Source of the DNA: Acaryochloris marina MBIC11017
GTDB taxonomy: Bacteria > Cyanobacteriota > Cyanobacteriia > Thermosynechococcales > Thermosynechococcaceae
DNA: 32,000 bases
Assembly (NCBI RefSeq): GCF_000018105.1
Contig: NC_009925.1
Location: 5,190,001-5,222,000 of the forward strand
Direction: 5' to 3'
Under the pieces are notes generated by a model. It made no database searches and was not told the origin of the DNA. It was given only the letters and a program-made list of their open reading frames with translations. Both the position numbers and the translations under genes were made by a program. Shown one piece after another: positions 2,400-32,000 of the stretch (positions within the stretch are counted from its first letter, which is position 1; every line of letters begins with the position of its first letter).

Positions 2400-5300
2400 A
2401 TGGGCATATTCAATATATTACATTCCTCCAAAGCTAACGACAGCTCTAGCATCTGTGAAGACACGATCCATGCGTTTAACGATGGCCTGACCATGACGGT
2501 TGACCACATCACCCTAAGTCGATACCAAATTCTAGAGCAACTATACGAAAGCTCTAGGACATTGGTTTATCGCGCCCACAACCAGGTCACTCAGACAGAT
2601 GTTGTCCTTAAGATACTTAAAACCCCCTACCCCACTGCTCAAGAATTAGCTGAGTTCCGGCATGAATATGAAATAGCCCGCGAGCTTGATGTCCCTGGAG
2701 TCGTTCAGCCGACTGCACTTTTACCTTATAACAACGGCTTGGCGATTGAGATGCCCGACTTCGGCGGTATCTCCCTCTCCGATTTTGCAACCCCTTCGAC
2801 CGAGCATGGGAAGCCCCGTTCTCCCATGGCTATCCATATATTTTTAGACATTGCTCTTCAGTTAGCGAAAGCGTTAGAGAGTCTGAGTCAGTATCAGATT
2901 ATTCATAAGGATATTAAGCCTCACAATATTGTTGTTCACCCTCAAACCTTAGAAACAAAACTAATTGATTTCAGCCTGGCATCTCTATTGCCTCGAGAAA
3001 GCACTGCTTTACTGAGTCCTAAATTGCTAGAAGGAACGCTACTCTATCTTTCTCCAGAGCAAACGGGACGCATGAACCGGAAGGTGGACTATCGAACAGA
3101 CTTTTACTCTTTAGGCATTACGTTTTATGAGTTGCTAACGGGCCAACTTCCTTTTCAGGCCCAAGATCCAATGGAATTGGTACATTGCCATATTGCTCAG
3201 GTCCCTGTTGCGCCGATCGTTATCAATCCCAATATTCCCGAAGTCCTCAACCAGATTGTCCTGAAGCTGATCGCTAAAATGGCTGAGGATCGGTATCAGA
3301 CCGCCTATGGACTCCATTACGACCTAGCCTACTGCCGTCATTTACTGCAAGAGCAAGGGCAAGTGAGTTCTTTTGCCCTTGCTCAAGAAGATCAGCCGAC
3401 GGATTTTGTCATTCCTGAAAAATTGTATGGCCGAACCCAAGAGGTTGAGATATTACTCAATACCTTTGAACGGGTTGCTCAAGGGGCCAGCGAACTGATG
3501 CTGGTCTCAGGGCATTCTGGTGTTGGCAAAACAGCCGTAATTAGCGAAATTCATAAGCCCATTGTTCGGCGACGGGGCTATTTTATTCAGGGCAAGTTTG
3601 ATCAGCTGCAGCAGAGCATGCCCTTCGCGGCACTTTTACAAGCTTTCCAAGATCTATGTCAGCAGTTATTGATGGAAAGCCCTGAGAGCGTCAAGCAGTG
3701 GCAAACCAAAATCCTGACTGCAGTGGGTGACAATGGCCAAGTCATTATTGATGTAATCCCTGAAGTAGAGCTGCTCATTGGTCCCCAACCCCCTGTGGCT
3801 GAACTCGAGCCTGGACCTACTTTAAATCGATTTAACCTTGTTTTTCAGCAGTTTTTCCAGATCTTTCCGGGGGTCGATCATCCTCTGGTTCTCTTCCTAG
3901 ACGATTTGCAATGGATTGATTCTGCCTCCTTAAAGTTCTTGCAATCTCTGTTAGAAGAGTCAGAACGAGGGTATCTATTGCTGATCGGGACGTATCGAGA
4001 CAACGAAGTTCTGGACGCTCATCCGTTGATGCAGACCCTAAGACGGCTCGAACAATCAGAACTCACCATCAGTCGGCTCCATCTGACAGCTTTACAAGCC
4101 AAGGATTTGAATGCACTGATCTCAGACACCTTGGCCTGCTCACCAGAGCAAACCTGTACCCTCACCCAATACTTGTTTCAGAAGACCCAGGGGAACCCCT
4201 TCTTTAGTCGACAATTCTTGCAAACGCTGGAGAAAGAACAGCTGATTCGGTTTAACCAAACCTTGCGATCTTGGGAATGGGATATTACTGAAATTCAGGC
4301 CTTGGCTCTGACAGGGGATGTCGTTGAATTTATGCGACGTCAGTTACTCAAGCTCTCGCCAGAAACGCAAGAAAGTCTCAAACTCGCGGCATGCATTGGT
4401 AATCGTTTTACCTTGAAGACTTTGGCCATTGTCTCTGGCACTAGCGAGGAGAAAACCGCTCAAACTTTATGGGAAGCTTTGCAGGCTGGGCTACTTGAAG
4501 GTATTAAAAATGTCAATCTGACAGAACAAATCCAAGCGGCTATAGACGAGAATCAACCTCTATCAATAGAGTCTCGAACATCAGGATTAGCCCCATCCAT
4601 CAGCACCTATACATTCCTCCATGACCGGATTCAGCAAGCGGCTTATTCCTTAATTCCATCGGGACAAAAACGAGCCACTCACTTAATGATTGGTCAACAG
4701 TTACTCAAGCTAGTTCCGGAGATGGAGCGGGATGAGCAAATCTTTGAGCTAGTCAATCAGCTCAACCGCGGGGCTACTCTGCTGGAAACATCAGAAGAAC
4801 AGGTGAACCTGGCTGAACTCAACCGAGTTGCAGCCAAAAAGGCACGGACCTCTACTGCCTATGATCTCGCTGCTGAATATGCCTCAATGGGTTTGACCCT
4901 TTTGGGGAAAGACGGATGGCAGCAGCACTATGATCTGACGTTGGCCTTATCTGAGCTGGCCGCGGAAGCGGCTTACTTGCACAGTGCAATTGGGACCATG
5001 GAATCATTGGTCGAGTCAATTCTCGCCCATGCCGCTCATCCCCTTGATCAGGTAAGGGCGTATGAAATCCAAATCCAAGCCTACACTTCTCATAACCGAC
5101 TGCTAGATGCCCTGGCCACCGCTCGCCAAGCCCTGGCTCGCTTTGGTATCCATTTTCCAGAATCACCTCAGCCAGAAGATATCCAAGCGGCCTTCCAAGA
5201 CCTTGCCCAAGAAACGGCACTGTTCAACGTTGCTGAGTTTGGCAATTTGCCAGTGATGCTTGAACAACAGCAGCTTGCGGTGATGGGAATTGCGGCCAGT

Positions 5301-8300
5301 ATGATCCCAGCAGCCTACATTGCTGCACCTGATTTATTTCCCTTAGTGACGGTATTGGGGGTTAAAACCAGCATTCGCCATGGCAACTCCCCTCTGGGGG
5401 CTTTCTTTTATGCCACCTACAGTATTTTACTCACAGGGGTGTTGCAGGATATTGACCTGGCAACAGAGTACAGTCACTTGGCACTCCAGGTGATGGAGAA
5501 GTTTGATGCCAAACCCGTTCAGCCCGCTGTTCTATATAGCTTGGGCGCGTTCGTTACTCATGATTCAGTGCATCTCCAAAATGCGATCGCACTCCTGCGC
5601 GAAGGTTATCAAATTGCATTGGATACAGGCAATCTAGAATTTGTTGGCTACTGTGCTAAGGATATTTGCCAATATTCCTATTTCTGCGGTCAAGACTTGG
5701 GCTCCTTAACGTCGGACATCCAAGCCTATGTCAAGATTCTAGACAAATTCCAAATCGCCACTACCGCCTCGTTTACCCGCCTGTTTTGGCAAGTGGTTCT
5801 CAATCTGCGAGGCCAAAACCAAACCCCCACCCAGTTAGTGGGAAAGGCCTATAACGAGGCGGATGTCTTACCTCAGATGGTGAGCACCAGCAATGTTGCG
5901 GGGCTGCACTTTTACAGTGTGCATAAACTCGTTCTCGGCTATTTATTCCATGACCGCGATCATCTCCAGGCCCTTGCGGATCAGGCCCGTTTCTATCTAG
6001 ACGGCGGCCCCGGCTATTTTACGGGAACGATTTATCACTTTTATGACTCCCTAGCCTTATTGGCCCTCGTTCCCACCGGATCGAGTATTCCTGAACCTTG
6101 GCAAGAAAGAATTGAGCAGAACCAGGCTTACTTAAAGCGCCGTGCTCAGTATGGTCCCATGAATGTCCAGCACAAGTATCATCTGGTGGAGGCGGAACGC
6201 TATCGAGTCTTAGGTGCTCATCTTGAGGCCATTGATGCTTACGATCTCGCCATTTCTTTAGCAACAGAGCATCATTTCACCCAAGAAGCCGCCCTAGCTC
6301 AGGAACTCGCCGCTCGGTTTTATTTGCAATGGGGCAAAACCACCATTGCCCAGACTTATATGGTGAATGCCTATTACGCCTACGAACGCTGGGGGGCAAC
6401 CGCCAAGCTGGCAGACCTGGAAAGTAACTATGCCCAGTTACTTGCCCCATTCCTGAATAGTGGGCTGCGAATTCAGGCATTAGAGTCCTTTAGTTTGGCC
6501 CGAACCCAACCCACCCACTCCAGCCACCAAGGTGGATTTAAAGGCCTGGACTGGGCTGCAGTCATGAAAGCCTGTCAAGCCCTATCTGAAGAGATTGAAA
6601 TCGAGCGACTCCTAGCCACCACAATGCAGGTGGTCATCGAGAATGCTGGCGCAGAGCGAGGCTGTTTGTTGTTATACCAAGATCAACAGCTCTGCTTAGT
6701 GGCGCAACACCCAGAGCAGGCAATGCAGCTTCCCATTTCTTTGAACCATGTGGGAATTAATGGTCACTTGCCTCTATCCCTGATTCACTACAGTGAACGA
6801 ACCCAAGAAACCCTGGTCATTCAGGATGGTCGTACTGAAACCAAATTTGCCGGTGACCTCTATCAAATTAATCAAGCGCCTCTGTCTCAGCTGTGCATGC
6901 CAATTCTACGGCAAGGGGACTTAGTCGGATTACTCTATCTAGAAAATAATTTAACTCCTGGGGCTTTCACCCCCAATCACTTAGAAGTCCTCCACCTGCT
7001 CGCTGCCCAAGCCGCCATTTCCATCGACAATGCCCAACTCTATGCCTCAGTTGAGAAAAAAGTCGCCCAACGGACCCAGCAACTCCGTACAGCCCAGCTC
7101 GAAGCCGAACACGCCAACCAAGCAAAAAGTGATTTCCTGGCCAGCATGAGTCATGAACTGCGCACTCCCCTCAATGCCATTTTGGGGTTTAGCCAGTTAA
7201 TGGCCCAAGATGCGAGGTTGCCGCAGCACCTAGGCGAATCTCTCGCCATCATTAATCGTAGCGGGGAACATTTACTTGATCTGATTAACGATGTATTAGC
7301 CCTCTCCAAAATTGAGGCAGGGAAAACCACCCTTCAACTCGATACGTTCAATTTTTATGAATTTTTACAGGCCATTCATGGCATGTTGCAGCTGAGGGCT
7401 AAATCCAAAAACCTGGACTTTCACTTCGAACAATCCCCTGATATCCCTGAAGTCATTCAAGCGGATGAACGCAAACTTCGCCAAATTCTGATTAATTTAT
7501 TGGGGAATGCCATTAAATTTACGGAACAGGGGCGGGTGACATTGCGAGTCACAAACGCCCACTCACAATCAGAGGGATTGACTCCCCCAGATATTTCTGT
7601 CCTCCAATTTGAAGTAGAAGACACAGGGGCTGGAATTGCAAAGGATGAACTCGATAGCGTTTTTGAAGCCTTCGTTCAAACCCAATCAGGCATTAAATCC
7701 CGGCAGGGTACTGGCCTAGGGCTCCCCATCAGTCAAAGCTTTGTGCAGCTCATGGGAGGCCAACTCCAAGTCCGCAGTGAAGAGGGTATCGGAACTTGCT
7801 TCTTTTTCAATTTGCCGGTTTTGGTAACGACCACTCCAGTCACCCACAAGCCGTCCCAACAGAAAATTCTTCGATTAGCGGAAGATCAACCAAATTACCG
7901 CATTTTAGTGGTGGAAGACCAAGTCGATAACCAACGACTCTTAATCGATCATTTATCCCCCCTCGGTTTTATGATGGCTGCCGTCAATGATGGTCCATCA
8001 GCCATTGAAAGTTGGCAATCTTGGCGCCCTCATTTAATCTGGATGGACTTACAGCTACCTGGGATGAATGGGCTAGAAGTTGCCAAAAAAATCAAGGACT
8101 TAGCCGCCGCTAGTAACAGCCCTCCGCCCATCATCATTGCCCTTACCGCTAATGCATTTGATGACGTTCGTATTCAAGCCCTGGCCAATGGTTGTGACGG
8201 ATTTGTCAGCAAGCCTTATATTTTGACGGAGATATTGGATTTAATGGCTGAAAAACTCAATCTTAGTTGGATTTATGAGGAGTCGACCCCTGTTCAGCCT

Positions 8301-8522
8301 CAGACCATTCCCGTTCGAACCCTTGACCCTGAACATCTCAACCGACTGCCGCTCACTTGGCGAGAGCAACTCAATCAGGCCGCTCTATTTTTAGATGAAG
8401 GTAAAGTGGTTGATCTTATTTCAGAAATTGAACCGAACCATCAAGAAATTGCTGCAAGCCTATACCAACTCGTCAAGGACTATCAGTTTGAAAGACTGAT
8501 TCACTTAACTGAGTCTAGCTGA
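2400..8522 (+). CDS. Giant multidomain sensor: Ser/Thr protein kinase + AAA/STAND-like P-loop ATPase + helical repeat region + GAF + HisKA/HATPase_c histidine kinase + receiver (HstK-like hybrid kinase)
   Basis: 2040-aa ORF.
- Kinase motifs: VVLKILK (catalytic Lys), IIHKDIKPHNIVV (catalytic loop), LIDFSLAS (DFG-like), LYLSPEQ (APE-like).
- P-loop VSGHSGVGKTAV and Walker B LVLFLDDLQWID.
- GAF-like segment ending LLYLENN.
- H-box SMSHELRTPLNAILGF (His codon 7152-7154), N-box LINLLGNAIKFT, G-boxes VEDTGAGI and GTGLGL.
- Receiver ILVVEDQVDN ... LIWMDLQLPGMNG (Asp codon 8046-8048).
- The start could instead be Met32 (2493). Confidence 0.9.
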   Translation: MGIFNILHSSKANDSSSICEDTIHAFNDGLTMTVDHITLSRYQILEQLYESSRTLVYRAHNQVTQTDVVLKILKTPYPTAQELAEFRHEYEIARELDVPGVVQPTALLPYNNGLAIEMPDFGGISLSDFATPSTEHGKPRSPMAIHIFLDIALQLAKALESLSQYQIIHKDIKPHNIVVHPQTLETKLIDFSLASLLPRESTALLSPKLLEGTLLYLSPEQTGRMNRKVDYRTDFYSLGITFYELLTGQLPFQAQDPMELVHCHIAQVPVAPIVINPNIPEVLNQIVLKLIAKMAEDRYQTAYGLHYDLAYCRHLLQEQGQVSSFALAQEDQPTDFVIPEKLYGRTQEVEILLNTFERVAQGASELMLVSGHSGVGKTAVISEIHKPIVRRRGYFIQGKFDQLQQSMPFAALLQAFQDLCQQLLMESPESVKQWQTKILTAVGDNGQVIIDVIPEVELLIGPQPPVAELEPGPTLNRFNLVFQQFFQIFPGVDHPLVLFLDDLQWIDSASLKFLQSLLEESERGYLLLIGTYRDNEVLDAHPLMQTLRRLEQSELTISRLHLTALQAKDLNALISDTLACSPEQTCTLTQYLFQKTQGNPFFSRQFLQTLEKEQLIRFNQTLRSWEWDITEIQALALTGDVVEFMRRQLLKLSPETQESLKLAACIGNRFTLKTLAIVSGTSEEKTAQTLWEALQAGLLEGIKNVNLTEQIQAAIDENQPLSIESRTSGLAPSISTYTFLHDRIQQAAYSLIPSGQKRATHLMIGQQLLKLVPEMERDEQIFELVNQLNRGATLLETSEEQVNLAELNRVAAKKARTSTAYDLAAEYASMGLTLLGKDGWQQHYDLTLALSELAAEAAYLHSAIGTMESLVESILAHAAHPLDQVRAYEIQIQAYTSHNRLLDALATARQALARFGIHFPESPQPEDIQAAFQDLAQETALFNVAEFGNLPVMLEQQQLAVMGIAASMIPAAYIAAPDLFPLVTVLGVKTSIRHGNSPLGAFFYATYSILLTGVLQDIDLATEYSHLALQVMEKFDAKPVQPAVLYSLGAFVTHDSVHLQNAIALLREGYQIALDTGNLEFVGYCAKDICQYSYFCGQDLGSLTSDIQAYVKILDKFQIATTASFTRLFWQVVLNLRGQNQTPTQLVGKAYNEADVLPQMVSTSNVAGLHFYSVHKLVLGYLFHDRDHLQALADQARFYLDGGPGYFTGTIYHFYDSLALLALVPTGSSIPEPWQERIEQNQAYLKRRAQYGPMNVQHKYHLVEAERYRVLGAHLEAIDAYDLAISLATEHHFTQEAALAQELAARFYLQWGKTTIAQTYMVNAYYAYERWGATAKLADLESNYAQLLAPFLNSGLRIQALESFSLARTQPTHSSHQGGFKGLDWAAVMKACQALSEEIEIERLLATTMQVVIENAGAERGCLLLYQDQQLCLVAQHPEQAMQLPISLNHVGINGHLPLSLIHYSERTQETLVIQDGRTETKFAGDLYQINQAPLSQLCMPILRQGDLVGLLYLENNLTPGAFTPNHLEVLHLLAAQAAISIDNAQLYASVEKKVAQRTQQLRTAQLEAEHANQAKSDFLASMSHELRTPLNAILGFSQLMAQDARLPQHLGESLAIINRSGEHLLDLINDVLALSKIEAGKTTLQLDTFNFYEFLQAIHGMLQLRAKSKNLDFHFEQSPDIPEVIQADERKLRQILINLLGNAIKFTEQGRVTLRVTNAHSQSEGLTPPDISVLQFEVEDTGAGIAKDELDSVFEAFVQTQSGIKSRQGTGLGLPISQSFVQLMGGQLQVRSEEGIGTCFFFNLPVLVTTTPVTHKPSQQKILRLAEDQPNYRILVVEDQVDNQRLLIDHLSPLGFMMAAVNDGPSAIESWQSWRPHLIWMDLQLPGMNGLEVAKKIKDLAAASNSPPPIIIALTANAFDDVRIQALANGCDGFVSKPYILTEILDLMAEKLNLSWIYEESTPVQPQTIPVRTLDPEHLNRLPLTWREQLNQAALFLDEGKVVDLISEIEPNHQEIAASLYQLVKDYQFERLIHLTESS

Positions 8523-12508: not shown

Positions 12509-13210
12509 CTATAGAATCAAATCTTCTAGGGCATCAGTATCAATGATGCACAGCACATCCTGATTGCGTTGAATAAGGCCTTTGTTTTCCAGCTTACCTA
12601 ATTGGCGAGTCACCGTCTCTCGGGCCATGCCGCTAAGGCTGCTTAACTCTCGATGAGGTAAATTGGGAATCTCTATGCCCCCTTTCCCTTCTATTCCTTG
12701 ACCTTCTGCTAAGAACAGAAGGATATCGGCCACGCGGGATTGAGCATCTGCCTCTCTCAATCGTAACCGCCGATTAAGCTGCCGCAAACGACGAGCCATT
12801 AGCTTGGCCAGACGGATGCCAGCTTGAGGCTGCGTCTGCATTAAGTTCACAAAATCCGTAGAAGGCATATTCGCTACAGTTGTGGGGGTAAGGGTAATCA
12901 CATCTGTAGAACGGGGAACCTCATCTAAGGGAGCCATTTCGCCAAAAATCTCACCCTTGCCGACAATATTTAAGGTGACTTCTTTGCCATCGATGTTATA
13001 GGTCCGGATTTTGACCCATCCATTCAAAATGAAGTAAACGGAACTTCCCCAATCATTTTCTAGAAGAATCACCCTATTTGCAGGATGTTCGCGGGTCACA
13101 ACTTGAGCAACCGCTTGATCAACTACTGGATCAGGTAGACCAGCAAAAAAGGGCGTTGAACGAAGCTGAGTTTCTAGTTTGTCGTCACGGGAACTGTGCC
13201 GATCATCCAT
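12509..13210 (-). CDS. Crp/Fnr-family transcriptional regulator (cNMP-binding domain + C-terminal HTH)
   Basis: A beta-roll region (VYFILNGWVKIRTYNIDGKEVTLNIVGKGEIFGEMAPL) is followed by the HTH HRELSSLSGMARETVTRQLGKLENKGLI. The start is set at Met18 (ATG 13210, MDDRHSS...). It is not NtcA by sequence. Confidence 0.8.
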   Translation of the reverse strand: MDDRHSSRDDKLETQLRSTPFFAGLPDPVVDQAVAQVVTREHPANRVILLENDWGSSVYFILNGWVKIRTYNIDGKEVTLNIVGKGEIFGEMAPLDEVPRSTDVITLTPTTVANMPSTDFVNLMQTQPQAGIRLAKLMARRLRQLNRRLRLREADAQSRVADILLFLAEGQGIEGKGGIEIPNLPHRELSSLSGMARETVTRQLGKLENKGLIQRNQDVLCIIDTDALEDLIL

Positions 13211-13848
13211 AGACGTTTTAGGGGGGAGAAATGAGACGGTATCAAAAGGAGTGAAGCACAATTACTGGCTTGAAGCAACCATAACAAACAAACTTCCCTC
13301 CTTGAGGAAATCTTGAAGGAAAGTTGCAGACCCTAACATTGTGTGTTACATTTCTTAATATTGAAGGTTTTATTGATTGATGAGCTATCTTCTCCCTCTA
13401 CATATCAGGCCTTCCTCTTCCCAACACAGCTTATTGAACCAGTCGATTTCTTCCGGCTGGTTCTTCCCAGTTCATGAATATTCCCTAAGCAGATAACAGT
13501 TGTTTAGATTTCATTACTTTGCGGTCGTAGACCGTGATACCTTAAAAACTGGTGCGCTTTGTAAAAGAGACTTTTTTCAAAAGCTTTTTACATAAGGCTG
13601 TGACTAGATTCAACCCCTGTGAAATCTACTTTCCTGAATATTCACCTAGATTTTTCGCGGCAAGTGGGCTGCAAGATTCAGAACGGTTCTCATATTTACT
13701 AGGCTTATCAATAGAGAATTCAGTGGTAATCATACGGCAGAGTAGCGTGGCGGTGGGCACTTGGCTTATGCCAAGTCACCCTCCTGTTCAAATCTAGTGT
13801 CCTTTTATTTTTTTTAGCTCATATATCAATCTTCTGGAGGTATTCTCA

Positions 13849-18972: not shown

Positions 18973-19446
18973 ATGAATTTGGCGTCTTTCCCTTGGCTAG
19001 AAGCTGAAATAATTCGTCATAGTTTGAGACTAATAAAGAGTTATCAGCACTGGACAGGAAAACCACTGACAGGGGATGCTCCTTCCCCTGCCGAGATCGC
19101 CCATGATTTATTTCATGCCTCTTTTGTACTGCTATCCCATGGTACAGAGACTGACCCCGTTCTTAATTACGGCAACCAGCCTGCCCTTGATCTCTGGGAA
19201 ACAACCTGGCCTGAACTGACTGCGATGCCCTCTCGCTTGACCGCAGAGCCACATGAGCGGCAAAGCCGGACCCAGCTCCTCCACCAAGCCGCCCAGCAAC
19301 ACTATATTCAGAACTATCAAGGGATCCGGATCTCCACCACGGGCCGCCGATTTAGAATCAGCAATGCGGAAATATGGGATATCTGGGATGAGCAAGAGCA
19401 AAAATGTGGACAAGCAGCCAAGTTCAGCCACTGGGAATGGCTATAA
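18973..19446 (+). CDS. Stand-alone MEKHLA-domain (PAS-like) protein
   Basis: 157-aa ORF. SYQHWTGKPL, FVLLSHGTETDPVLNYGNQPALDLWETTWPELTAMPSRLTAEP and YQGIRISTTGRRFRISNAEIWDIWD correspond to the MEKHLA domain known from plant HD-ZIP III proteins and from small bacterial proteins. Confidence 0.7.
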   Translation: MNLASFPWLEAEIIRHSLRLIKSYQHWTGKPLTGDAPSPAEIAHDLFHASFVLLSHGTETDPVLNYGNQPALDLWETTWPELTAMPSRLTAEPHERQSRTQLLHQAAQQHYIQNYQGIRISTTGRRFRISNAEIWDIWDEQEQKCGQAAKFSHWEWL

Positions 19447-19464: not shown

Positions 19465-20727
19465 CAGGGCGACCGCACATAGAAGTTAACAAAGCCGTCG
19501 AATTCGGAAGAGGTGGAGGATAATGCCTCAAAAACAACGCTCAGCAAGCCATGACATCCTCTCCCTTTGCCTCAATTATTGAACACTTCAGCGACTTAGA
19601 CGACCCGAGAGCAGCCCACCGCATAGAGTATTCGCTAGAAGATATCATCATCATCACCCTATGCGCTGTCCTTTGTGGAGCAGATAATTGGGTGGAAGTG
19701 GCCAACTATGGTCGTTCCAAAGCCCAGTGGTTAAAGCAATGGATAGCATTGCCAAACGGTGTTCCCTCCCATGACACCTTCGAGTGGGTCTTTGCCAGAT
19801 TGAAACCTCAACAATTGCAGCAATGCTTTCTCAATTGGACTCAAGCCATCTATCAACTGAGCGCAGGAGAATTGATTGCGATTGACGGCAAGACACTCCG
19901 GGGCGCGATTGCGCCAGGTGAGCAGTGCAGCTTGATTCACATGGTCAGTGCATGGGCCAGTCACAATCGTCTAGTTTTAGGTCAACGCACCGTTGACGAG
20001 AAATCCAATGAGATTACGGCTATTCCTGAATTACTGAAAGTGTTAGAGCTTGAAGGAGCCTTGGTCAGTATTGATGCGATGGGCTGTCAAACAGCGATTG
20101 CCGAGACGATTATTGAGGGCCAAGGTGATTATGTGTTGGCCCTCAAAGGCAATCAAGGTGATTTATATAACGATGTGGTGCAACTGTTTGACCATGCTTG
20201 TCAGACTCAATTTCAGGGGATTGAGCATGATAGCTATCAAACCGTCGAGAAAGGGCATGGGCGAATTGAGCATCGCACCTATTGGACAATGGGGCAAACC
20301 GATTACTTACTGGGGGCTGAGCGTTGGGCTCAATTGAAGTCGATTGGGTGCGTTGAATCGTGTCGTCGTCAGCCAGGACACCCAGGCACACTTCAGCGGC
20401 GCTATTACCTTTTGAGCATTGAGAGTGATGCACAACGGTTTGCCGATGCTGTGCGCTCTCATTGGGGGATTGAAAACCAGTTGCACTGGATTTTGGATGT
20501 GGGATTTCGTGAAGATAAACTGCGTGCCTGTCAGGGATGCAGTGCTCAAAACCTATCCGTCATTCGTCATATTGCTGCTAATTTGCTGCAGCAAGAGTCA
20601 ACGGCTAAATGTGGGGTTAAGGCAAAACGGCTCAAGGCAGGTTGGGATGATAACTACCTGGTCAAGATCCTCAGCGTTGCTGCCAAGGGAATACCTTCTT
20701 CATGAAGAACTATGTGCGGTTGCCCTG
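19465..20727 (+). mobile_element. Intact ISAs1-family insertion sequence (1263 bp)
   Basis: The terminal inverted repeats are CAGGGCGACCGCACATAG (19465-19482) and the reverse complement of 20710-20727 (CAGGGCAACCGCACATAG), matching at 17 of 18 positions. They are flanked by a perfect 10-bp direct repeat. A single transposase ORF fills the element. CAGGG ends and an 8-10 bp duplication are what I recall for the ISAs1 family. Confidence 0.9.
19551..20705 (+). CDS. ISAs1-family (H-repeat-associated) DDE transposase
   Basis: 384-aa ORF. The N-terminus HFSDLDDPRAAHRIEYSLEDIIIITLCAVLCGADNWVEV is the signature DDE_Tnp_1_assoc region. It is followed by IAIDGKTLRG, VSIDAMGCQ and HWGIENQLHWILDVGFRED catalytic-region motifs. 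There is no frameshift or premature stop. Confidence 0.92.
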   Translation: MTSSPFASIIEHFSDLDDPRAAHRIEYSLEDIIIITLCAVLCGADNWVEVANYGRSKAQWLKQWIALPNGVPSHDTFEWVFARLKPQQLQQCFLNWTQAIYQLSAGELIAIDGKTLRGAIAPGEQCSLIHMVSAWASHNRLVLGQRTVDEKSNEITAIPELLKVLELEGALVSIDAMGCQTAIAETIIEGQGDYVLALKGNQGDLYNDVVQLFDHACQTQFQGIEHDSYQTVEKGHGRIEHRTYWTMGQTDYLLGAERWAQLKSIGCVESCRRQPGHPGTLQRRYYLLSIESDAQRFADAVRSHWGIENQLHWILDVGFREDKLRACQGCSAQNLSVIRHIAANLLQQESTAKCGVKAKRLKAGWDDNYLVKILSVAAKGIPSS

Positions 20728-24477: not shown

Positions 24478-27213
24478 TTAAACGCGAAATTTTTTATCTA
24501 TCAAAGGCAGAAGCTGATCCATTGCCGTAGCAGCTTGAAAGTAATATCCCTGATAGTGAGAACATCCTAATCTTTGTAGGCAGTGCAACTGAGAGGAGGA
24601 CTCAATCCCCTCAGCTACAAAGGTTACCCCTAAGCTGTTCGCGATCGTCAGAATACCTTTCATGATGCCTTCCTTGGCTGGATCAATGTCGATATCGCTG
24701 ACAAAAGTGCGGTCAATCTTAAGGGTATCGAAGGATAAATTCAATAAGTAAGCCAAGGACGAGAAACCTGTTCCAAAATCATCGATGGCAATTCGAACTC
24801 CCTCATTTTTTAGGGCAGTCAACAATTGACTGGGAACTTCACCGGGATGTAGAAACACACTTTCTGTAATTTCTAGTTCTAATGCAGAGCCGGGTAGTTT
24901 GGCAGCGGTTAGGGCTCTCCTCACCCGCTTGACTAATGTACAAGGCGCTAAAAATTCCTGAGCAGAAATATTCACCGCCACATACAGATGAGGATAGGCA
25001 CTGTTAAGGGGAGCAAGGATGGCTAGGCTATGGTCCAGAACCCAATCTGTTAGGGCAGCAATCAGATGGCTTTCTTCGGCGATGGGAATAAAGGTCGAGG
25101 GGGGAACAATACCTAAGGTTGGATGATGCCATCTGACTAATGCTTCTAAACCCAAAATTTGCCCTTCAGGGCCGACCTGGGGTTGAAAAACCAGGTTTAG
25201 TTCGTCCTTTTCAATGGCAGTCCTTAAAGCATGCTCAATGGCCAACTTGCGCTGTAGGGTTGCAGACAGCTGAGCACTGTAGAACTGATAATTATTGCGC
25301 CCTTGAGCCTTCGCCCGATACATGGCCAGATCTGCCTGCTTCATCAGCTCACTGGAGGTTTTTCCTTGAGCTGGATAAAGGCTAATGCCAATACTGCCAC
25401 CAATAAAGATCTCGTGGTTTTGAACGTGAAACGGGGTTCGTAATTGCTGAAGAATGGCTTGAGCCATTTTGGCTGCTGCATCTGGGGATGCGGCCCGGGG
25501 AAGTAAGACCACAAATTCATCTCCGCCCAGGCGAGCCACGGTATCGGATGAGGTCACAGCCCCCTGGAGCCGCTGAGCCACTTGGCAGAGCAATTCATTT
25601 CCAATCGCATGACTCAAGCTGTCATTCACCTTTTTAAAGCCATCTAAATCGATGAAGAGCATGGCAAAGGGTGTGGGTTGATCCGCCGTCTTAGCAATGA
25701 GGGCTTCTAAGGTATGGCGAAATAAGGTGTGATTGGGAAGAGCCGTCAAGGCATCATGATGGGCCATAAAGTGAAGCTGATCCGTGAGGGAACGCACCTT
25801 GGAAATATCTTCACAGGCCAACAACAGTTGAGGAATTCCTCGATGATCATGGACTCTACGGGCATTTTGACGAGCCCAGATCAGGGTGCCATCAGCTTGG
25901 AGCATTTGCGCTTCACGGCTGTAAATCTCGCCAATTTCTAGGTTAGATAAGGTTTGTAAGTAAGCCTGAATTTCTGCAGTTTGGTCATCCGGGTGGAGGA
26001 TGCTAAACGGGGAACCAATCAGGTGATCCACTAAATATCCCAGTTGACTCGCCCCAAAATGGCTGACACGGTGAATCATGCCCTGTGAATCAAGGGCCAG
26101 CAGCAGTAGAGGACTGCCATCGATAAAAAGGCGTACTTGCTCTTCACTATCTCGAAGAACGGCGGCGGCTTCATCTTGTAAGCGAATACGCTCAAAGGTT
26201 GAGCCCATTAGTTCGGCCAAGGTCGTTAAAATCGACAATAATTGATTGCCATCTTTGATCCGCTTAGACGAGGCAGCGTTGAGAATGCCTGTAATTTCAC
26301 CCATTACATGAACAGGAACGCTCCAGCCACAGCGCAATCCTGCTTCCATGAGCATGGCATGTTCGATAAAATCGCTTTCACCCAACTGAGCAAAGAAATA
26401 GGGTTGGCCTAGCTCATAAATAAACCCCAAGCCTGATTTCTCTTTGGGTAAAACAATATCCGTGGGTAAATAGGCATCTCCGGTAAAGCGGAAAATGCGA
26501 AATCCTTTTAATTCTGGGGCTGGTTCAGCATAGCTAACGCGATCCACCGGAATAATTTTTTTGATGGCCTTTGCGATCGCATCAAAGACTTCCTCATCAG
26601 AAATAGCGGCGGATAGTTTGCGGGCAATTTCGTTCAGTACCTGCAGTTGCTCCGCTTGGGACCGATACCCTTCCATAGCCACCTGGGTCTGTTTGAGCAG
26701 CATTTGCCGCTCCAGGTTGGTGGAAATCAAGGTCGTGATTTGAGTCAAGAGGCTAAGAATTTGCGTCTCAGCCAAACTCGGATTGGAAAAAGCCGCATTC
26801 ACTGCCCCGATGGCTTGACCATGAATCATCAACGGTACGCTGACGAATAGAGACATGCCCTCTGCAGACAGACGGACGATATCGAGATAGGGACTGTCGG
26901 GAGACGCCCAGTTTACCTGGGGCTGCCCTGTTCGAACCGCTAATCCTGCAGCTGTTCCGTCACAGGGAATGGTTTTACCGATCGGGCTGACGCCTTCTAT
27001 CCCGTTTAATGCATAAATTTCTAGCTCATGCCCTTCTTCTGTGAGGAGGATGATACTGGTTCGAGCGACCGGGAGAATATCTGGGATATAGGCTGCAACC
27101 GTAGCATAAACATCCGTTTCTGATGTAGCCGATGCGATCGCAATAATCAGTTTCCCTAATGCGATCGAAACATCAGGATTCTCTAAAATCGATAGGGACT
27201 CAGATAAACTCAC
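24478..27213 (-). CDS. c-di-GMP signalling protein: GAF-GAF-PAS-GGDEF-EAL
   Basis: 911-aa ORF with two N-terminal GAF-like modules and a PAS-like segment (FIDGSPLLLLALDSQGMIHRVS...). The GGDEF motif is intact (ARLGGDEFVVLL), as is the EAL motif (LGLEALVRWHHP), and DDFGTG and QGYYF are present. Confidence 0.9.
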   Translation of the reverse strand: MSLSESLSILENPDVSIALGKLIIAIASATSETDVYATVAAYIPDILPVARTSIILLTEEGHELEIYALNGIEGVSPIGKTIPCDGTAAGLAVRTGQPQVNWASPDSPYLDIVRLSAEGMSLFVSVPLMIHGQAIGAVNAAFSNPSLAETQILSLLTQITTLISTNLERQMLLKQTQVAMEGYRSQAEQLQVLNEIARKLSAAISDEEVFDAIAKAIKKIIPVDRVSYAEPAPELKGFRIFRFTGDAYLPTDIVLPKEKSGLGFIYELGQPYFFAQLGESDFIEHAMLMEAGLRCGWSVPVHVMGEITGILNAASSKRIKDGNQLLSILTTLAELMGSTFERIRLQDEAAAVLRDSEEQVRLFIDGSPLLLLALDSQGMIHRVSHFGASQLGYLVDHLIGSPFSILHPDDQTAEIQAYLQTLSNLEIGEIYSREAQMLQADGTLIWARQNARRVHDHRGIPQLLLACEDISKVRSLTDQLHFMAHHDALTALPNHTLFRHTLEALIAKTADQPTPFAMLFIDLDGFKKVNDSLSHAIGNELLCQVAQRLQGAVTSSDTVARLGGDEFVVLLPRAASPDAAAKMAQAILQQLRTPFHVQNHEIFIGGSIGISLYPAQGKTSSELMKQADLAMYRAKAQGRNNYQFYSAQLSATLQRKLAIEHALRTAIEKDELNLVFQPQVGPEGQILGLEALVRWHHPTLGIVPPSTFIPIAEESHLIAALTDWVLDHSLAILAPLNSAYPHLYVAVNISAQEFLAPCTLVKRVRRALTAAKLPGSALELEITESVFLHPGEVPSQLLTALKNEGVRIAIDDFGTGFSSLAYLLNLSFDTLKIDRTFVSDIDIDPAKEGIMKGILTIANSLGVTFVAEGIESSSQLHCLQRLGCSHYQGYYFQAATAMDQLLPLIDKKFRV

Positions 27214-29572: not shown

Positions 29573-29656
29573 ATTACCCCACCAAGTATCCTGACCTAGC
29601 TCCAATCCATCGAATAGAATAGGACGAAAGGAATTTAGCATCGTCCCTGGTCATCC

Positions 29657-32000
29657 ATGAGCCACAGCCCCACCGATACCGACGCCGCTACCTACGACTA
29701 CGATGTGTTTATCTCATACAGCCGTGCTGATAAGGCTTGGGTGCGGAAGGTACTGGTGACGCGACTGCAAAATGCGGGGTTAAAGGTTTGTATTGACTAC
29801 GAAGATTTTCAGCCAGGGGCACCCGCGATTAAGGAGATTAAGCGGGCGGCGATGACCAGCCGCAAGACGTTGTTGGTGCTAACGGCAAATTATTTGAAGA
29901 GTGGTTGGACGGAATTTGAACGATATTTGTTGCAAACCCCAGATCCGAATAATACAGAACTGCGATTGTTGCCTGTCTTGAAGGAAGCTTGTGCCCTGCC
30001 GCCGGACATTAGTTATCTAAGTTATGTCAATTTTACCGACCCTGAGGAACTGGATATTGCCTGGAAGCAGGTGTTTCGAGCGTTTGGGATTGAGGAAGCC
30101 GAAGCGGCTCCACCGCAAGAATATACACCAAAACAATGGTTTCTGGCTCACCCCTACGGGATGCCACCACACTTTACGGGGCGCGTCGCTGAACGGCAAC
30201 TGCTGAGTGATTGGCTAAATCAGGGTTCCCAGCCATTGCTGGTGCTGAAGGCTTTGGGGGGCTTTGGCAAAAGTGCCCTGACCTGGCATTGGTTGCTGCA
30301 TGATGTGGAAGAGGGTGATTGGCCCCTAGTGGTGTGGTGGAGCTTCTATGAAGAGAAAGCGGGGTTTGATAATTTTGTCTCTGCTACGTTGGCTTATCTG
30401 AGTGGGCAAAAGCCAGATGGTTTGAATCCGACAGAGCGGGTAAGGCGGTTGTTGGAGTATTTGTTGCAGCATCGGATCTTGCTGGTTCTGGATGGGTTTG
30501 AGCGGGCACTGCGGGCCTATGGCAGCCTGGGGGCGGCCTATCAAGGAGATGGGGAACAGGAAATCGCCGATGCGGGGCGCGATTGCGTGAATCCGGGGGC
30601 GGAGTTGTTTTTGCGGAATTTGGCGAGTTTGCCGAAGCTGCAGGGCAAGGTGCTTATGTCTACCCGGTTGAGGCCCCGTCCGGTGGAGGTGACTGGGGGG
30701 GCTTTGCTGCAGGGCTGTCAGGAGGTAGAGCTGACACAGATGCAGGCAGCGGATGCGGTGGCGTTTTTTCGGGTGCAGGGGATCCGGGGCAATCGGGGAG
30801 AGATCGAGCAGGCTTGTAAGGCTTATGGGTTTCACCCGTTAAGTTTGCGGTTGCTGGCGGGGCAGGTGGTCAAGGACTTGCGCAATCCGGGGGATATTCA
30901 GGCGGCACAGCGGCAGGATTTGACGGGGAGCCTGGTGCAGCGGCAACATCATGTGTTGGAGCAGTCCTATAACATTTTGAGCCTAGAGGGGCGGCAACTG
31001 CTGAGTCGGATTGCCTGTTTTCGCAGTCCGGTGACCTTTGAGGTGCTGGCGGCATTGGCGACAGAAGAGTCTGATTTAGAAAATGGTTTGCAGGATTTGA
31101 TCGAACGGGGATTGGTGCAGCGGGAGGGCCAGCGATTTGACCTGCACCCGATTGTGCGGCGCTATGCCTATGACCGTATGGAGACGACAGAACGCAGCAG
31201 CACCCATGGCCAACTGCGGGACTACTTTGCGGCGGTGCCGGAGGTGGAGCGGGTGAAGACGGTGGATGACCTGGCCCCGGTGATGGAGCTGTATCACCAT
31301 ATGGTGCGGGCGGGGCAGTATGACGAGGCGCTGAAGTTGTTTAGAGATCGTCTCGACAAACCCCTCTACTACCAACTCGGAGCCTACCAACAATATATCG
31401 AACTCCTCCGTGCCCTCTTTCCCCAGGGGGAAACCCAGCTCCCCCAACTCCAGTCTGAAGATGGCCAGGGTTGGACGCTGAACTCGCTGGCCAATAGCTA
31501 CAGCCTCAGCGGTCAACCTGCGCAGGCTGTGCCCCTGTTTGAGCAGAGTTTTTTGCTAGCGGAAAAGCAAGGAAATAAGAAAAACTGGGCGATCGGCCTG
31601 GGTGCTGTTGCCTCTGTTGCGTATTTCCCTATCGGTGCCCTACAAGCCGCTGAAGCCAACCTGCGCCGTCGAATTGCCATCTGCCAGGAGCTTGAGGACG
31701 AGTTCCGGGAGGCGATAGGACATCGGGATTTGGGACGACTGCTGGCTTGCTGGGGAGACTGGGGAGCAGCGGCAGAAGCGTTGGATCGGGCACTGGAATT
31801 GTTTGAGAAAGGTAACAATATCCAATCCCAAGGAGTTGTTTGGGTCTATCGAGCTTTAAGTGCTTTGCTGCGGACCCGATCGCACCAGACCTCCAATTCA
31901 CAGCGGACTGAACTTGCTGCCACTGCCCTTGCCGCCGCCCAGCGTGCGATCGCCCTGGCCGATGAAGATACCCGTACTCGATACCCCCACGAACGAGACT
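29657..32000 (+). CDS. TIR domain / NB-ARC (STAND P-loop NTPase) / TPR-repeat protein, 3'-truncated by the window edge (NLR-like candidate immune sensor)
   Basis: Not in the supplied ORF track because no stop occurs before base 32000. My manual translation from ATG 29657 is open for 781 codons.
- TIR: YDVFISYSRADKAWV ... LKSGWTEFERYLL (Glu88 = GAA 29918-29920).
- Walker A: LKALGGFGKSALTW (Lys205 = AAA 30269-30271).
- Walker B: ILLVLDGFE.
- RNBS-B-like: LMSTR.
- GLPL-like: YGFHPLSLRLLA.
- TPR-like repeats from about residue 540: GWTLNSLANSYSLSGQPAQAVPLFEQSFLLAEK and HRDLGRLLACWGDWGAAAEALDRALELFEK. Confidence 0.85.
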   Translation, partial: MSHSPTDTDAATYDYDVFISYSRADKAWVRKVLVTRLQNAGLKVCIDYEDFQPGAPAIKEIKRAAMTSRKTLLVLTANYLKSGWTEFERYLLQTPDPNNTELRLLPVLKEACALPPDISYLSYVNFTDPEELDIAWKQVFRAFGIEEAEAAPPQEYTPKQWFLAHPYGMPPHFTGRVAERQLLSDWLNQGSQPLLVLKALGGFGKSALTWHWLLHDVEEGDWPLVVWWSFYEEKAGFDNFVSATLAYLSGQKPDGLNPTERVRRLLEYLLQHRILLVLDGFERALRAYGSLGAAYQGDGEQEIADAGRDCVNPGAELFLRNLASLPKLQGKVLMSTRLRPRPVEVTGGALLQGCQEVELTQMQAADAVAFFRVQGIRGNRGEIEQACKAYGFHPLSLRLLAGQVVKDLRNPGDIQAAQRQDLTGSLVQRQHHVLEQSYNILSLEGRQLLSRIACFRSPVTFEVLAALATEESDLENGLQDLIERGLVQREGQRFDLHPIVRRYAYDRMETTERSSTHGQLRDYFAAVPEVERVKTVDDLAPVMELYHHMVRAGQYDEALKLFRDRLDKPLYYQLGAYQQYIELLRALFPQGETQLPQLQSEDGQGWTLNSLANSYSLSGQPAQAVPLFEQSFLLAEKQGNKKNWAIGLGAVASVAYFPIGALQAAEANLRRRIAICQELEDEFREAIGHRDLGRLLACWGDWGAAAEALDRALELFEKGNNIQSQGVVWVYRALSALLRTRSHQTSNSQRTELAATALAAAQRAIALADEDTRTRYPHERD

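Follow-up and report, generated by a model that had tools for sequence, protein, structure and literature searches.

A TIR / Apaf-1-like ATPase / TPR gene with an NLR-like build in Acaryochloris marina MBIC11017 and its conserved prokaryotic family

The DNA analysed here is a 32,000-nucleotide stretch of Acaryochloris marina MBIC11017 (NC_009925.1, positions 5,190,001 to 5,222,000, forward strand), referred to below as the window. Its right-hand end, at 29657-32000 (+), is part of a real and conserved cyanobacterial gene whose product combines a TIR domain, an Apaf-1-like ATPase of the STAND type and tetratricopeptide repeats (TPR), a build like that of the NLR immune receptors. This protein, named TIR-STAND-TPR in the following, probably acts as a stand-alone, single-polypeptide NLR-like sensor, switch and effector of a conflict system, serving either defence against phages and other invaders or regulated cell death.

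The gene, its start and its leader

The preliminary description of this DNA reported a 781-codon open frame from the ATG at 29657, unlisted because it has no stop inside the window. Translation of 29657-32000 (+) confirmed this: the 781 codons are stop-free, and the frame is missing from the list of open reading frames (ORFs) solely since it exits the window. Such a frame is far beyond chance, since its estimated probability in this DNA of 49% GC is (61/64)^781, or about 1e-16. The motifs quoted in the same description were found at residues 16 (DVFISYS), 83 (GWTEFE, with W84 and E88), 201 (GGFGKS, with K205), 275 (LLVLDGFE), 335 (STR) and 391 (GFHPLSL).

Full-length cyanobacterial relatives measure 915-960 aa and are 70-82% identical to the protein over 100% of the fragment, and the frame could be aligned with full-length homologues right through the last residue of the window. 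Judging from these lengths, some 135-175 C-terminal residues, containing more TPRs, lie past the window edge. The C-terminus is conserved in the full-length homologues (...CDGPPDYxYKVAYDEA...).

The gene and the elements ahead of it are as follows.
29582-29656 (+): conserved promoter and 5' leader of about 75 nt, similar to 8 otherwise unrelated loci and containing invariant alignment blocks
Elements of this leader (+): a -35-like CTGACC at 29591, a -10-like TAGAAT ending at 29620, and the invariant AGGACGAAAGGAATTTAG
29657-32000 (+): TIR-STAND-TPR gene, 5' 781 codons, running off the window

As judged from the alignments, the ATG at 29657 is the true start of the gene, because it is aligned in the 8 loci and is preceded by the conserved leader. 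Nucleotide similarity to these loci begins abruptly at the promoter of the gene. The leader may be a regulatory site, or it may merely be a promoter and 5' untranslated region (UTR) travelling with the gene. A riboswitch or another RNA element within 29582-29656, for which no Rfam match was obtained, was set aside in favour of a promoter with a 5' UTR.

The TIR, ATPase and TPR modules

The N-terminal module contains the following features.
29699-30091 (+): TIR domain, aa 15-145, assigned by Pfam TIR_2 and TIR and by Foldseek
29804-29818 (+): BB-loop, aa 50-54, of sequence DFQPG, aligned to the RDFxPG of TLR2/TLR15; its G54 is invariant
29906-29920 (+): alpha-C motif W84-T-E-F-E88 with the putative catalytic Glu, assigned by conservation and by alignment to the TLR motif WCxYE

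The TIR domain seen by eye in the preliminary description was recovered by two Pfam models, TIR_2 (PF13676; 1.3e-22 over aa 17-130, 81 bits with the cutoff at 28) and TIR (PF01582; 1.3e-11, 45.1 bits against a cutoff of 21.3). Both sequence features of NADase-type TIR domains, the alpha-C Glu (W-x3-E) and the BB-loop Gly, are present. Among the 109 relatives over which motif conservation was counted throughout this work, W84 is kept in 108 (99%) and E88 in 101 (93%), the remainder having Gly (7) or Ala (1). The placement of E88 rests on HMMER alignments at the sequence level, in which 'ylkSgWtefEryl' stands without gaps against 'fvnSCWCqyElyf' of TLR15 and 'fvkSEWCkyEldf' of TLR2.

By profile, the closest TIR domains are of the TLR/MyD88 type, TLR1/2/6/15 among them (E 1e-17 to 1e-21), followed by weaker matches to AbTIR (2e-9), Roq1 (~4e-8) and SARM1 (~4e-3). 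A similar picture emerged from Foldseek, which matched the domain to the TIR of Hydra TRR-2 (TM-score normalised to the target, TMt, 0.90; root mean square deviation, rmsd, 1.9) and to MyD88 (TMt 0.85), with TMt values of 0.79-0.90 for the TLR/MyD88/TRR-2 group. According to the literature, the bacterial TIR domains assayed so far are in general NADases. It has also been reported that TLR2 keeps the alpha-C Glu without detectable NADase activity, that none was found for the adaptor TIRs either, and that those TIRs which are active depend on the Glu (Lapin et al. 2022, PMC9153377). The earlier claim that Glu88 occupies the position of the catalytic Glu therefore holds for its placement, which the W-x3-E motif and the gapless alignments support, but the same Glu is found in the NADase-negative TLR2. 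Glu88 thus appears correctly placed and is consistent with catalysis, for which it would be necessary without being diagnostic or proof.

The central nucleotide-binding and oligomerisation (NOD) module contains the following features.
30149-30184 (+): aa 165-176, the linker HPYGMPPHFTGR just ahead of the nucleotide-binding domain; family-specific and invariant, and also found in alphaproteobacterial and archaeal relatives
30182-31186 (+): NOD module, aa 176-510, with nucleotide-binding domain, helical domain and winged helix, assigned by the model and Foldseek
30257-30274 (+): Walker A/P-loop GGFGKS (K205), invariant in 109/109
30479-30502 (+): Walker B LLVLDGFE, with D279 and E282 invariant
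30515-30586 (+): post-Walker B insert, aa 287-310, family-specific, flanked by invariant AAYQGD and RDC, with a predicted local distance difference test score (pLDDT) below 50
30659-30667 (+): sensor-1/RNBS-B-like STR (R337), [ST]-T-R in the family, with R337 in 109/109
30827-30847 (+): GLPL-like GFHPLSL of the helical domain, with G391, H393, P394 and L395 invariant
31139-31153 (+): MHD-like DLHPI of the winged helix (His497), with H497 and P498 invariant, aligned to 'VHDMV' of PH0952

The ordered motif set of NB-ARC/AP-ATPases is thus complete (GGFGKS, LLVLDGFE, [ST]TR, G[FY]HPLSL and DLHPIVR), each motif being invariant or nearly so. The insert at aa 287-310, bracketed by AAYQGD and RDC, is foreign to canonical NB-ARC domains. 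The preliminary description had called the module an NB-ARC-type STAND ATPase and had made a significant NB-ARC hidden Markov model (HMM) match the test of that assignment. With Pfam NB-ARC (PF00931), the whole fragment scored 17.6 bits and the NOD alone 19.6 bits, below the cutoff of 23.5. Weak NB-ARC matches were seen in 10 of 15 relatives (best 3.4e-4), and none of the 15 passed the cutoff; a score of 22.6 bits was recorded for the relative P0049. Pfam NACHT (PF05729) also remained below its cutoff of 26.7, with 14.7-16.6 bits and weak matches in 3 of 15 relatives, and AAA_16 gave 17.3 bits on the whole fragment. By HMM alone, the ATPase is best described as an unclassified STAND protein. 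Of the earlier assignment, the motif order and, as set out below, the fold were upheld, and the Pfam class was not. Searched against RefSeq, NOD aa 172-508 gave matches of 1e-14 to 1e-18 to cyanobacterial proteins that carry the annotation 'NB-ARC domain-containing'.

A classification of the NOD from its sequence against PDB entries was tried and given up, as only the winged helix of PH0952 was significant (6.5e-4) and ZAR1 reached E 3.2, so that structure was needed. The AlphaFold2 (AF2) model of the whole fragment had a pLDDT of 83.2. Its Foldseek matches were PH0952 (6mfv; 3.7e-14), RPP1 (2.7e-9) and Apaf-1 (5.6e-9), followed by CED-4, NRC1/2, Roq1, ZAR1 and Dark, and the plant TIR-NLR WRR4A was found as well. 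The model of the NOD alone (pLDDT 90.5, predicted TM-score 0.88) gave the following matches, where TMq is the TM-score normalised to the query.
PH0952 (6mfv): E 4.8e-13, TMq 0.59, rmsd 4.4
CED-4: E 2e-12, TMq 0.44, rmsd 15.6
NRC1 NB-ARC: E 1.5e-11, TMt 0.63
MalT: E 5.2e-11, TMq 0.61
Apaf-1-ADP: E 1.5e-9, TMq 0.58
NLRP3 (NACHT), rank 44: E 1.4e-7, TMq 0.45
Avs3: E 2.2e-7, TMq 0.43

The structural comparison with RPP1 and Avs proteins that had been proposed as a check thus returned both, RPP1 with the whole model and Avs3, more weakly, with the NOD. By fold, PH0952, CED-4, NRC1, Apaf-1 and NRC2 ranked at the top and MalT fitted equally well. Because PH0952, CED-4, NRC1, Apaf-1 and MalT gave the best fits and both NACHT and Avs3 were clearly weaker, the NOD is placed in the Apaf-1/PH0952/MalT assemblage of STAND proteins; it is 'NB-ARC-like' by motifs and fold and lies outside Pfam NB-ARC. 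Within this assemblage, a sister relationship of PH0952 to the APAF1 clade has been reported, and MalT was placed at the base of the two (PMC6468293). The modelled NOD adopts a closed form: it superposed with rmsd values of 4.4-6 Å on PH0952, NRC1/NRC2, Apaf-1-ADP and MalT, and each of these low-rmsd superpositions is on a protein in its resting or ADP-bound form.

PH0952 (6mfv) and MalT are the best structural matches for the NOD, arm and TPR together (NOD TMq 0.59-0.61, rmsd 4.4-5.0), and their closed, doubly autoinhibited rest state provides the best template for the window protein (PMC6468293). Both are transcription regulators with DNA-binding outputs, whereas the window protein has a TIR domain instead. 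The resistosomes of plant TIR-NLRs (TNLs), such as RPP1, Roq1 and WRR4A, share with it a TIR domain and an NB-ARC-type NOD, whose fold is also common to Apaf-1 and CED-4. The sensors of TNLs and Apaf-1 are, however, leucine-rich or WD40 repeats, and that of the window protein is a TPR array. Its NOD also differs from theirs in staying below the Pfam NB-ARC cutoff and in having motifs of its own (HPYxMPPxFTGR, WWSFYE and the AAYQGD...RDC insert).

The C-terminal part of the fragment contains the following features.
31187-32000 (+): presumptive sensor, aa 511-781, comprising the arm and TPR-like helical repeats, cut by the window edge
31532-31606 (+): variable patch 1, aa 626-650, an entropy peak within the close clade, with nucleotide identity of 61-71% in every pairwise comparison
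31757-31906 (+): variable patch 2, aa 701-750, with the highest entropy in the close and distant sets

The TPR-like repeats of the preliminary description were supported by Pfam TPR_12 (2.5e-9, 37.6 bits against a cutoff of 30.1). In the model this region is an all-helical solenoid with pLDDT above 90, matching TPRs of the LGN/KLC type. Measured against six close homologues, dN/dS was 0.13-0.22 for the TIR and 0.15-0.20 for the NOD, and it rose to 0.33-0.49 for the TPR region. The idea of a hypervariable sensor was dropped, as the TPR region is only moderately faster and, at depth, is as conserved as the TIR.

A single syntenic locus was found, L005, from a metagenome-assembled genome (MAG) of Acaryochloris sp. 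IP29b, which shares the upstream P450 gene and the end of an insertion sequence (IS). Between the two loci, the TIR core (29730-30030; L005 2340-2640) is 58-60% identical, compared with 85-87% for the leader, 81-91% for the NOD-TPR part and 78% for the adjoining P450. Third-position identity was 0.58 in the P450, the baseline here being one 116-codon fragment, 0.55 in the TIR and 0.76 in the NOD/TPR part, so that identity confined to the gene (NOD/TPR) surpasses that of the adjoining P450. Because the TIR module is mosaic relative to L005 in this way and similarity to unrelated genomes has its abrupt onset at the promoter, these alignments suggest lateral exchange together with replacement or recombination of the TIR module within the TIR-STAND-TPR family. 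The evolutionary pattern, with a faster TPR and a mosaic TIR, fits a conflict gene. At L005 105-457, the P450 homologue contains an in-frame stop (GYQIPQG*SV), so that it is a pseudogene unless the assembly is wrong there.

Family, effector swapping and genomic context

At E<=1e-10, the 781-aa fragment has more than 1,470 matches among database proteins, and the best matches among the genome contigs scanned are 82-85% identical. Besides the many cyanobacterial ones, full-length relatives exist in Isosphaeraceae, Phycisphaerales and Pyrinomonadaceae, where identity is 53-58%. A search with the NOD alone against 1.84 billion cluster representatives returned 5,598 matches at 1e-3, 1,600 at 1e-10 and 765 at 1e-30, and the family size of ~765 used here refers to 50%-identity clusters with a NOD match at E<=1e-30. 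Its members occur in Cyanobacteria, Planctomycetota, Acidobacteriota, Alphaproteobacteria and Archaea. The family crosses the boundary between bacteria and archaea, since an alphaproteobacterial MAG (L013 9509-12373) and a Thermoplasmata archaeon MAG (L014 9584-12487) both encode the NOD-TPR chassis, with the hallmarks HPYxMxPNFTGR, WWSFYE, LDGxER and YGFHPLSLRLL. In both, a DUF4062-like N-terminus replaces the TIR.

Among the best 150 NOD relatives, the window-type TPR is present in 115 and the window-type TIR in only 35; in 79, a different N-terminal region, 70 aa or longer, is found. The domains that Pfam identified in this position are CHAT, Trypsin_2, Mrr_cat, PGAP1/alpha-beta-hydrolase, Metallophos, PNP_UDP_1, Pkinase, GT4-conflict, DUF4062, SEFIR, ThsB_TIR, NA-iREase1, bDLD1 (bacterial death-like domain 1) and EAD1/7/8. 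Such effector swapping on an ATPase-TPR chassis is a signature of a conflict system. Swapped effectors mark defence-associated STAND clades according to Lee et al. 2026 (PMC13581612), and by this criterion they mark the NOD family as one. The NLR-like tripartite logic advanced in the preliminary description is backed by the same exchange of effectors on a shared chassis.

Proteins with the order TIR-AP-ATPase-TPR were catalogued by Kaur, Burroughs, Iyer and Aravind in 2020 from cyanobacteria, actinobacteria and deltaproteobacteria, in line with the earlier remark that comparative genomics had already noticed them. Several of the conflict domains in that study (EAD1/7/8, bDLD1, GT4-conflict and NA-iREase1) are present in members of the window family. 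The neighbourhoods that it describes are largely multi-gene (vWA-MoxR, peptide-processing), whereas the window gene is solitary in the six contexts examined, namely the window copy and five homologues, a small sample for which only counts are given. Our literature search found no published trigger or output for the family, as the preliminary description had stated for cyanobacterial TIR/NB-ARC/TPR proteins, and no experimental work on the family or on any cyanobacterial TIR-STAND-TPR protein.

In the window, the neighbouring genes encode a P450, a GGDEF-EAL protein and a DEAD helicase. The homologues lie next to Mfd, to urease accessory proteins and CarA, to GOGAT and phytochrome two-component systems, and to a molybdopterin oxidoreductase and a MacB transporter. 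A conserved operon partner of the Thoeris-like, vWA-MoxR or peptide-processing kind was sought in the six contexts and none was found. The gene is therefore autonomous, with its own conserved promoter and leader and no conserved neighbour. Thoeris, in which the TIR protein ThsB works with an effector such as ThsA, differs in this respect, and the ThsB models matched the window protein weakly (1e-4 to 1e-2).

A conflict-type neighbour was seen in one of the six contexts only. In Leptolyngbya sp. CCNP1308 (L001 5116-5608), the homologue has immediately upstream of it a gene for a toxin of the BrnT family and a small 69-aa ORF, likely an antitoxin.

Other genes of the window were also inspected. 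An IS4-type DDE transposase gene (DDE_Tnp_1 with its associated N-terminal domain) is located at 19551-20705 (+), 9 kb upstream of the TIR-STAND-TPR gene. Its 3' end, at 20630-20727, matches the terminus of L005 at 96.9% identity, which shows that the Acaryochloris sp. IP29b MAG has the same IS. At 2400-8522 (+), a 2040-aa ORF combines a Ser/Thr kinase, AAA_16 (a STAND-like NTPase), GAF, HisKA/HATPase_c and a receiver, so that the window encodes another multidomain signalling protein of the STAND type, unrelated to the first. Further signalling genes encode a MEKHLA-domain protein (18973-19446, +), a CRP-family cNMP-binding regulator (12509-13261, -) and a GAF-PAS-GGDEF-EAL protein (24478-27213, -). 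The region is thus rich in signalling genes, and no recognisable defence gene was seen in it.

Proposed mechanism and alternative explanations

The mechanism that we propose starts from a resting protein in which an Apaf-1/PH0952-like NOD would be closed round ADP and held by the MHD-like His497 and the TPR arm. A ligand, most likely a protein, would bind the TPR solenoid, where aa 626-650 and 701-750 form the candidate surface. The NOD would then open and exchange ADP for ATP at K205/S206, D279/E282 and R337, giving a head-to-tail multimer. In this assembly, the TIR domains would meet via their BB-loops (G54) and form composite active sites round Glu88, and the output would be E88-dependent cleavage of NAD+. 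Because there is no conserved partner gene, the more likely output would be NAD+ depletion, with growth arrest or abortive infection; signalling to a dedicated receptor would be less likely. Oligomerisation-dependent NADase activity of TIR domains is established for TNLs (PMC9153377). As to ligand type, oligomerisation, NADase chemistry and immune phenotype, we infer them by analogy with TNLs, Avs proteins and the maize protein ZmTNP-IIa.

Several observations weigh against a NADase effector of a conflict system. The TIR domain is nearer to the TLR/MyD88 scaffold type than to the proven NADases AbTIR, SARM1 and RUN1; TLR2 keeps the alpha-C Glu and has no detectable NADase activity; and Glu88 is missing in 8 of the 109 relatives. 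The C-terminus of the window copy lies outside the stretch analysed. Conservation of 53-60% across phyla, TPR included, is unusual for an arms-race sensor. The six contexts, although different from one another, are all of a housekeeping or signalling nature and none contains a defence island, and searches of plasmids and phages revealed no close copy. Finally, the Avs and bNACHT/NACHT models of PADLOC-DB 2.0, a library without models for Avs7-24, gave no match to the NOD of the window protein or of six full-length relatives.

The PADLOC scan proposed in the preliminary description returned matches to the TIR domain only, namely PDC-S66 (1e-13), bSEFIR, SAVED-TIR and, weakly, ThsB, and six full-length relatives likewise gave nothing beyond the TIR. 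Membership of the Avs-type proteins, to which that description had likened the protein, was not borne out, there being no PADLOC Avs match and no defence island at the six loci. With the Avs/AVAST proteins 1-5 and Avs7-24 (Gao 2022; Lee 2026, PMC13581612), the window protein shares the single-polypeptide order effector-NTPase-TPR and swappable N-terminal effectors. It differs from them in those two respects and in having no known phage trigger, and its fold match to Avs3 (2.2e-7) is weaker than those to the Apaf-1/PH0952 group (1e-11 to 5e-13). The characterised Avs proteins are proteobacterial or myxobacterial, and none is cyanobacterial (PMC13581612).

The same chromosomal housekeeping contexts, the lack of close copies on phages and plasmids and the strong conservation of the whole protein across phyla, TPR included, would also be expected of a housekeeping or regulatory STAND protein. 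Such a protein would respond to an endogenous metabolic or stress cue (cf. MalT and SARM1) and tune NAD+ levels or dormancy and death rather than sense a pathogen. Its fold likeness to the ligand-sensing MalT and PH0952 is as high as that to NLRs, and the plant TIR-NOD-TPR proteins (TNPs), too, are conserved low-copy proteins whose part in immunity is unclear. Against this explanation, the N-termini of the family (caspase, trypsin, nuclease, lipase, death-like and EAD) belong to the repertoire of conflict systems, a DNA-binding output was found in no family member, and the module mosaicism and the faster TPR suggest dynamics of the conflict type. We regard a purely regulatory role as fairly unlikely.

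It is also conceivable, but unlikely, that the STAND switch works as proposed while the TIR is a non-enzymatic scaffold of the TLR/MyD88 type, whose oligomer recruits an effector encoded elsewhere in the genome. This possibility draws on the ranking of the TIR matches, where TLR1/2/6/15, Hydra TRR-2 and MyD88 come ahead of AbTIR and SARM1, on the inactive TLR2 with its retained Glu, and on the relatives in which pure adaptor modules (EAD1/7/8, bDLD1) replace or precede the TIR. A scaffold, however, would not need W84 and E88, which are conserved in 99% and 93% of relatives. The modules swapped into the TIR slot are mostly enzymes, the six contexts contain no conserved partner gene, and NADase activity is the general finding for assayed bacterial TIRs.

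The closest known counterparts in domain order are the plant TNP (XTNX) proteins, such as ZmTNP-IIa and Arabidopsis TN17/TN21, which share with the window family the succession TIR / Apaf-1-type NOD / TPR and the P-loop, TTR/STR, Walker B, GLPL-like and MHD-like motifs of the NOD. Both groups are conserved, low-copy and without an obvious partner. Cell death caused by maize ZmTNP-IIa requires the TIR Glu and the P-loop (PMC9806590). Johanndrees et al. found that bacterial look-alikes match TNPs in the nucleotide-binding domain alone and that TNP TIRs group apart from bacterial TIRs (PMC9806590). The TIR of the window protein is TLR-like. The origin of the land-plant TNP family has been stated to be unclear. 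It is quite improbable, in our estimate, that the present family is the prokaryotic counterpart or source of these proteins, its TLR-like TIR linking bacterial, plant and animal signalling and its sensor recognising a conserved endogenous or viral ligand.

Least probable is a non-functional window copy, truncated or decaying past the window edge: the final ~140 codons, with the stop, fall outside the window and the IS4-type transposase is 9 kb upstream, but all 781 codons and all catalytic and structural motifs are intact, dN/dS is well below 1 in TIR, NOD and TPR against six homologues, the promoter and leader are conserved, and the frame follows full-length homologues to its last residue.

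The combination of TIR, AP-ATPase and TPR was already known from surveys of STAND and apoptosis domains and from plant TNPs, and the activation logic proposed here is that of textbooks; the gene is a sound target for experiments rather than a surprising one. If the proposed conflict mechanism is true, it would represent a compact single-gene NLR of cyanobacteria and several other phyla. It would also offer a tractable system for finding out what a STAND protein from outside the enterobacteria senses, because its rest state has been modelled with confidence, Glu88 and the switch residues K205 and H497 are defined, and the variable patches are mapped. Since neither Pfam NB-ARC and NACHT nor PADLOC covers this family of about 765 clusters, defence-annotation pipelines miss it. 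Its architecture, identical to that of plant TNPs and joined to a TLR-like TIR, makes the family relevant to the evolution of TIR-NLR immunity.

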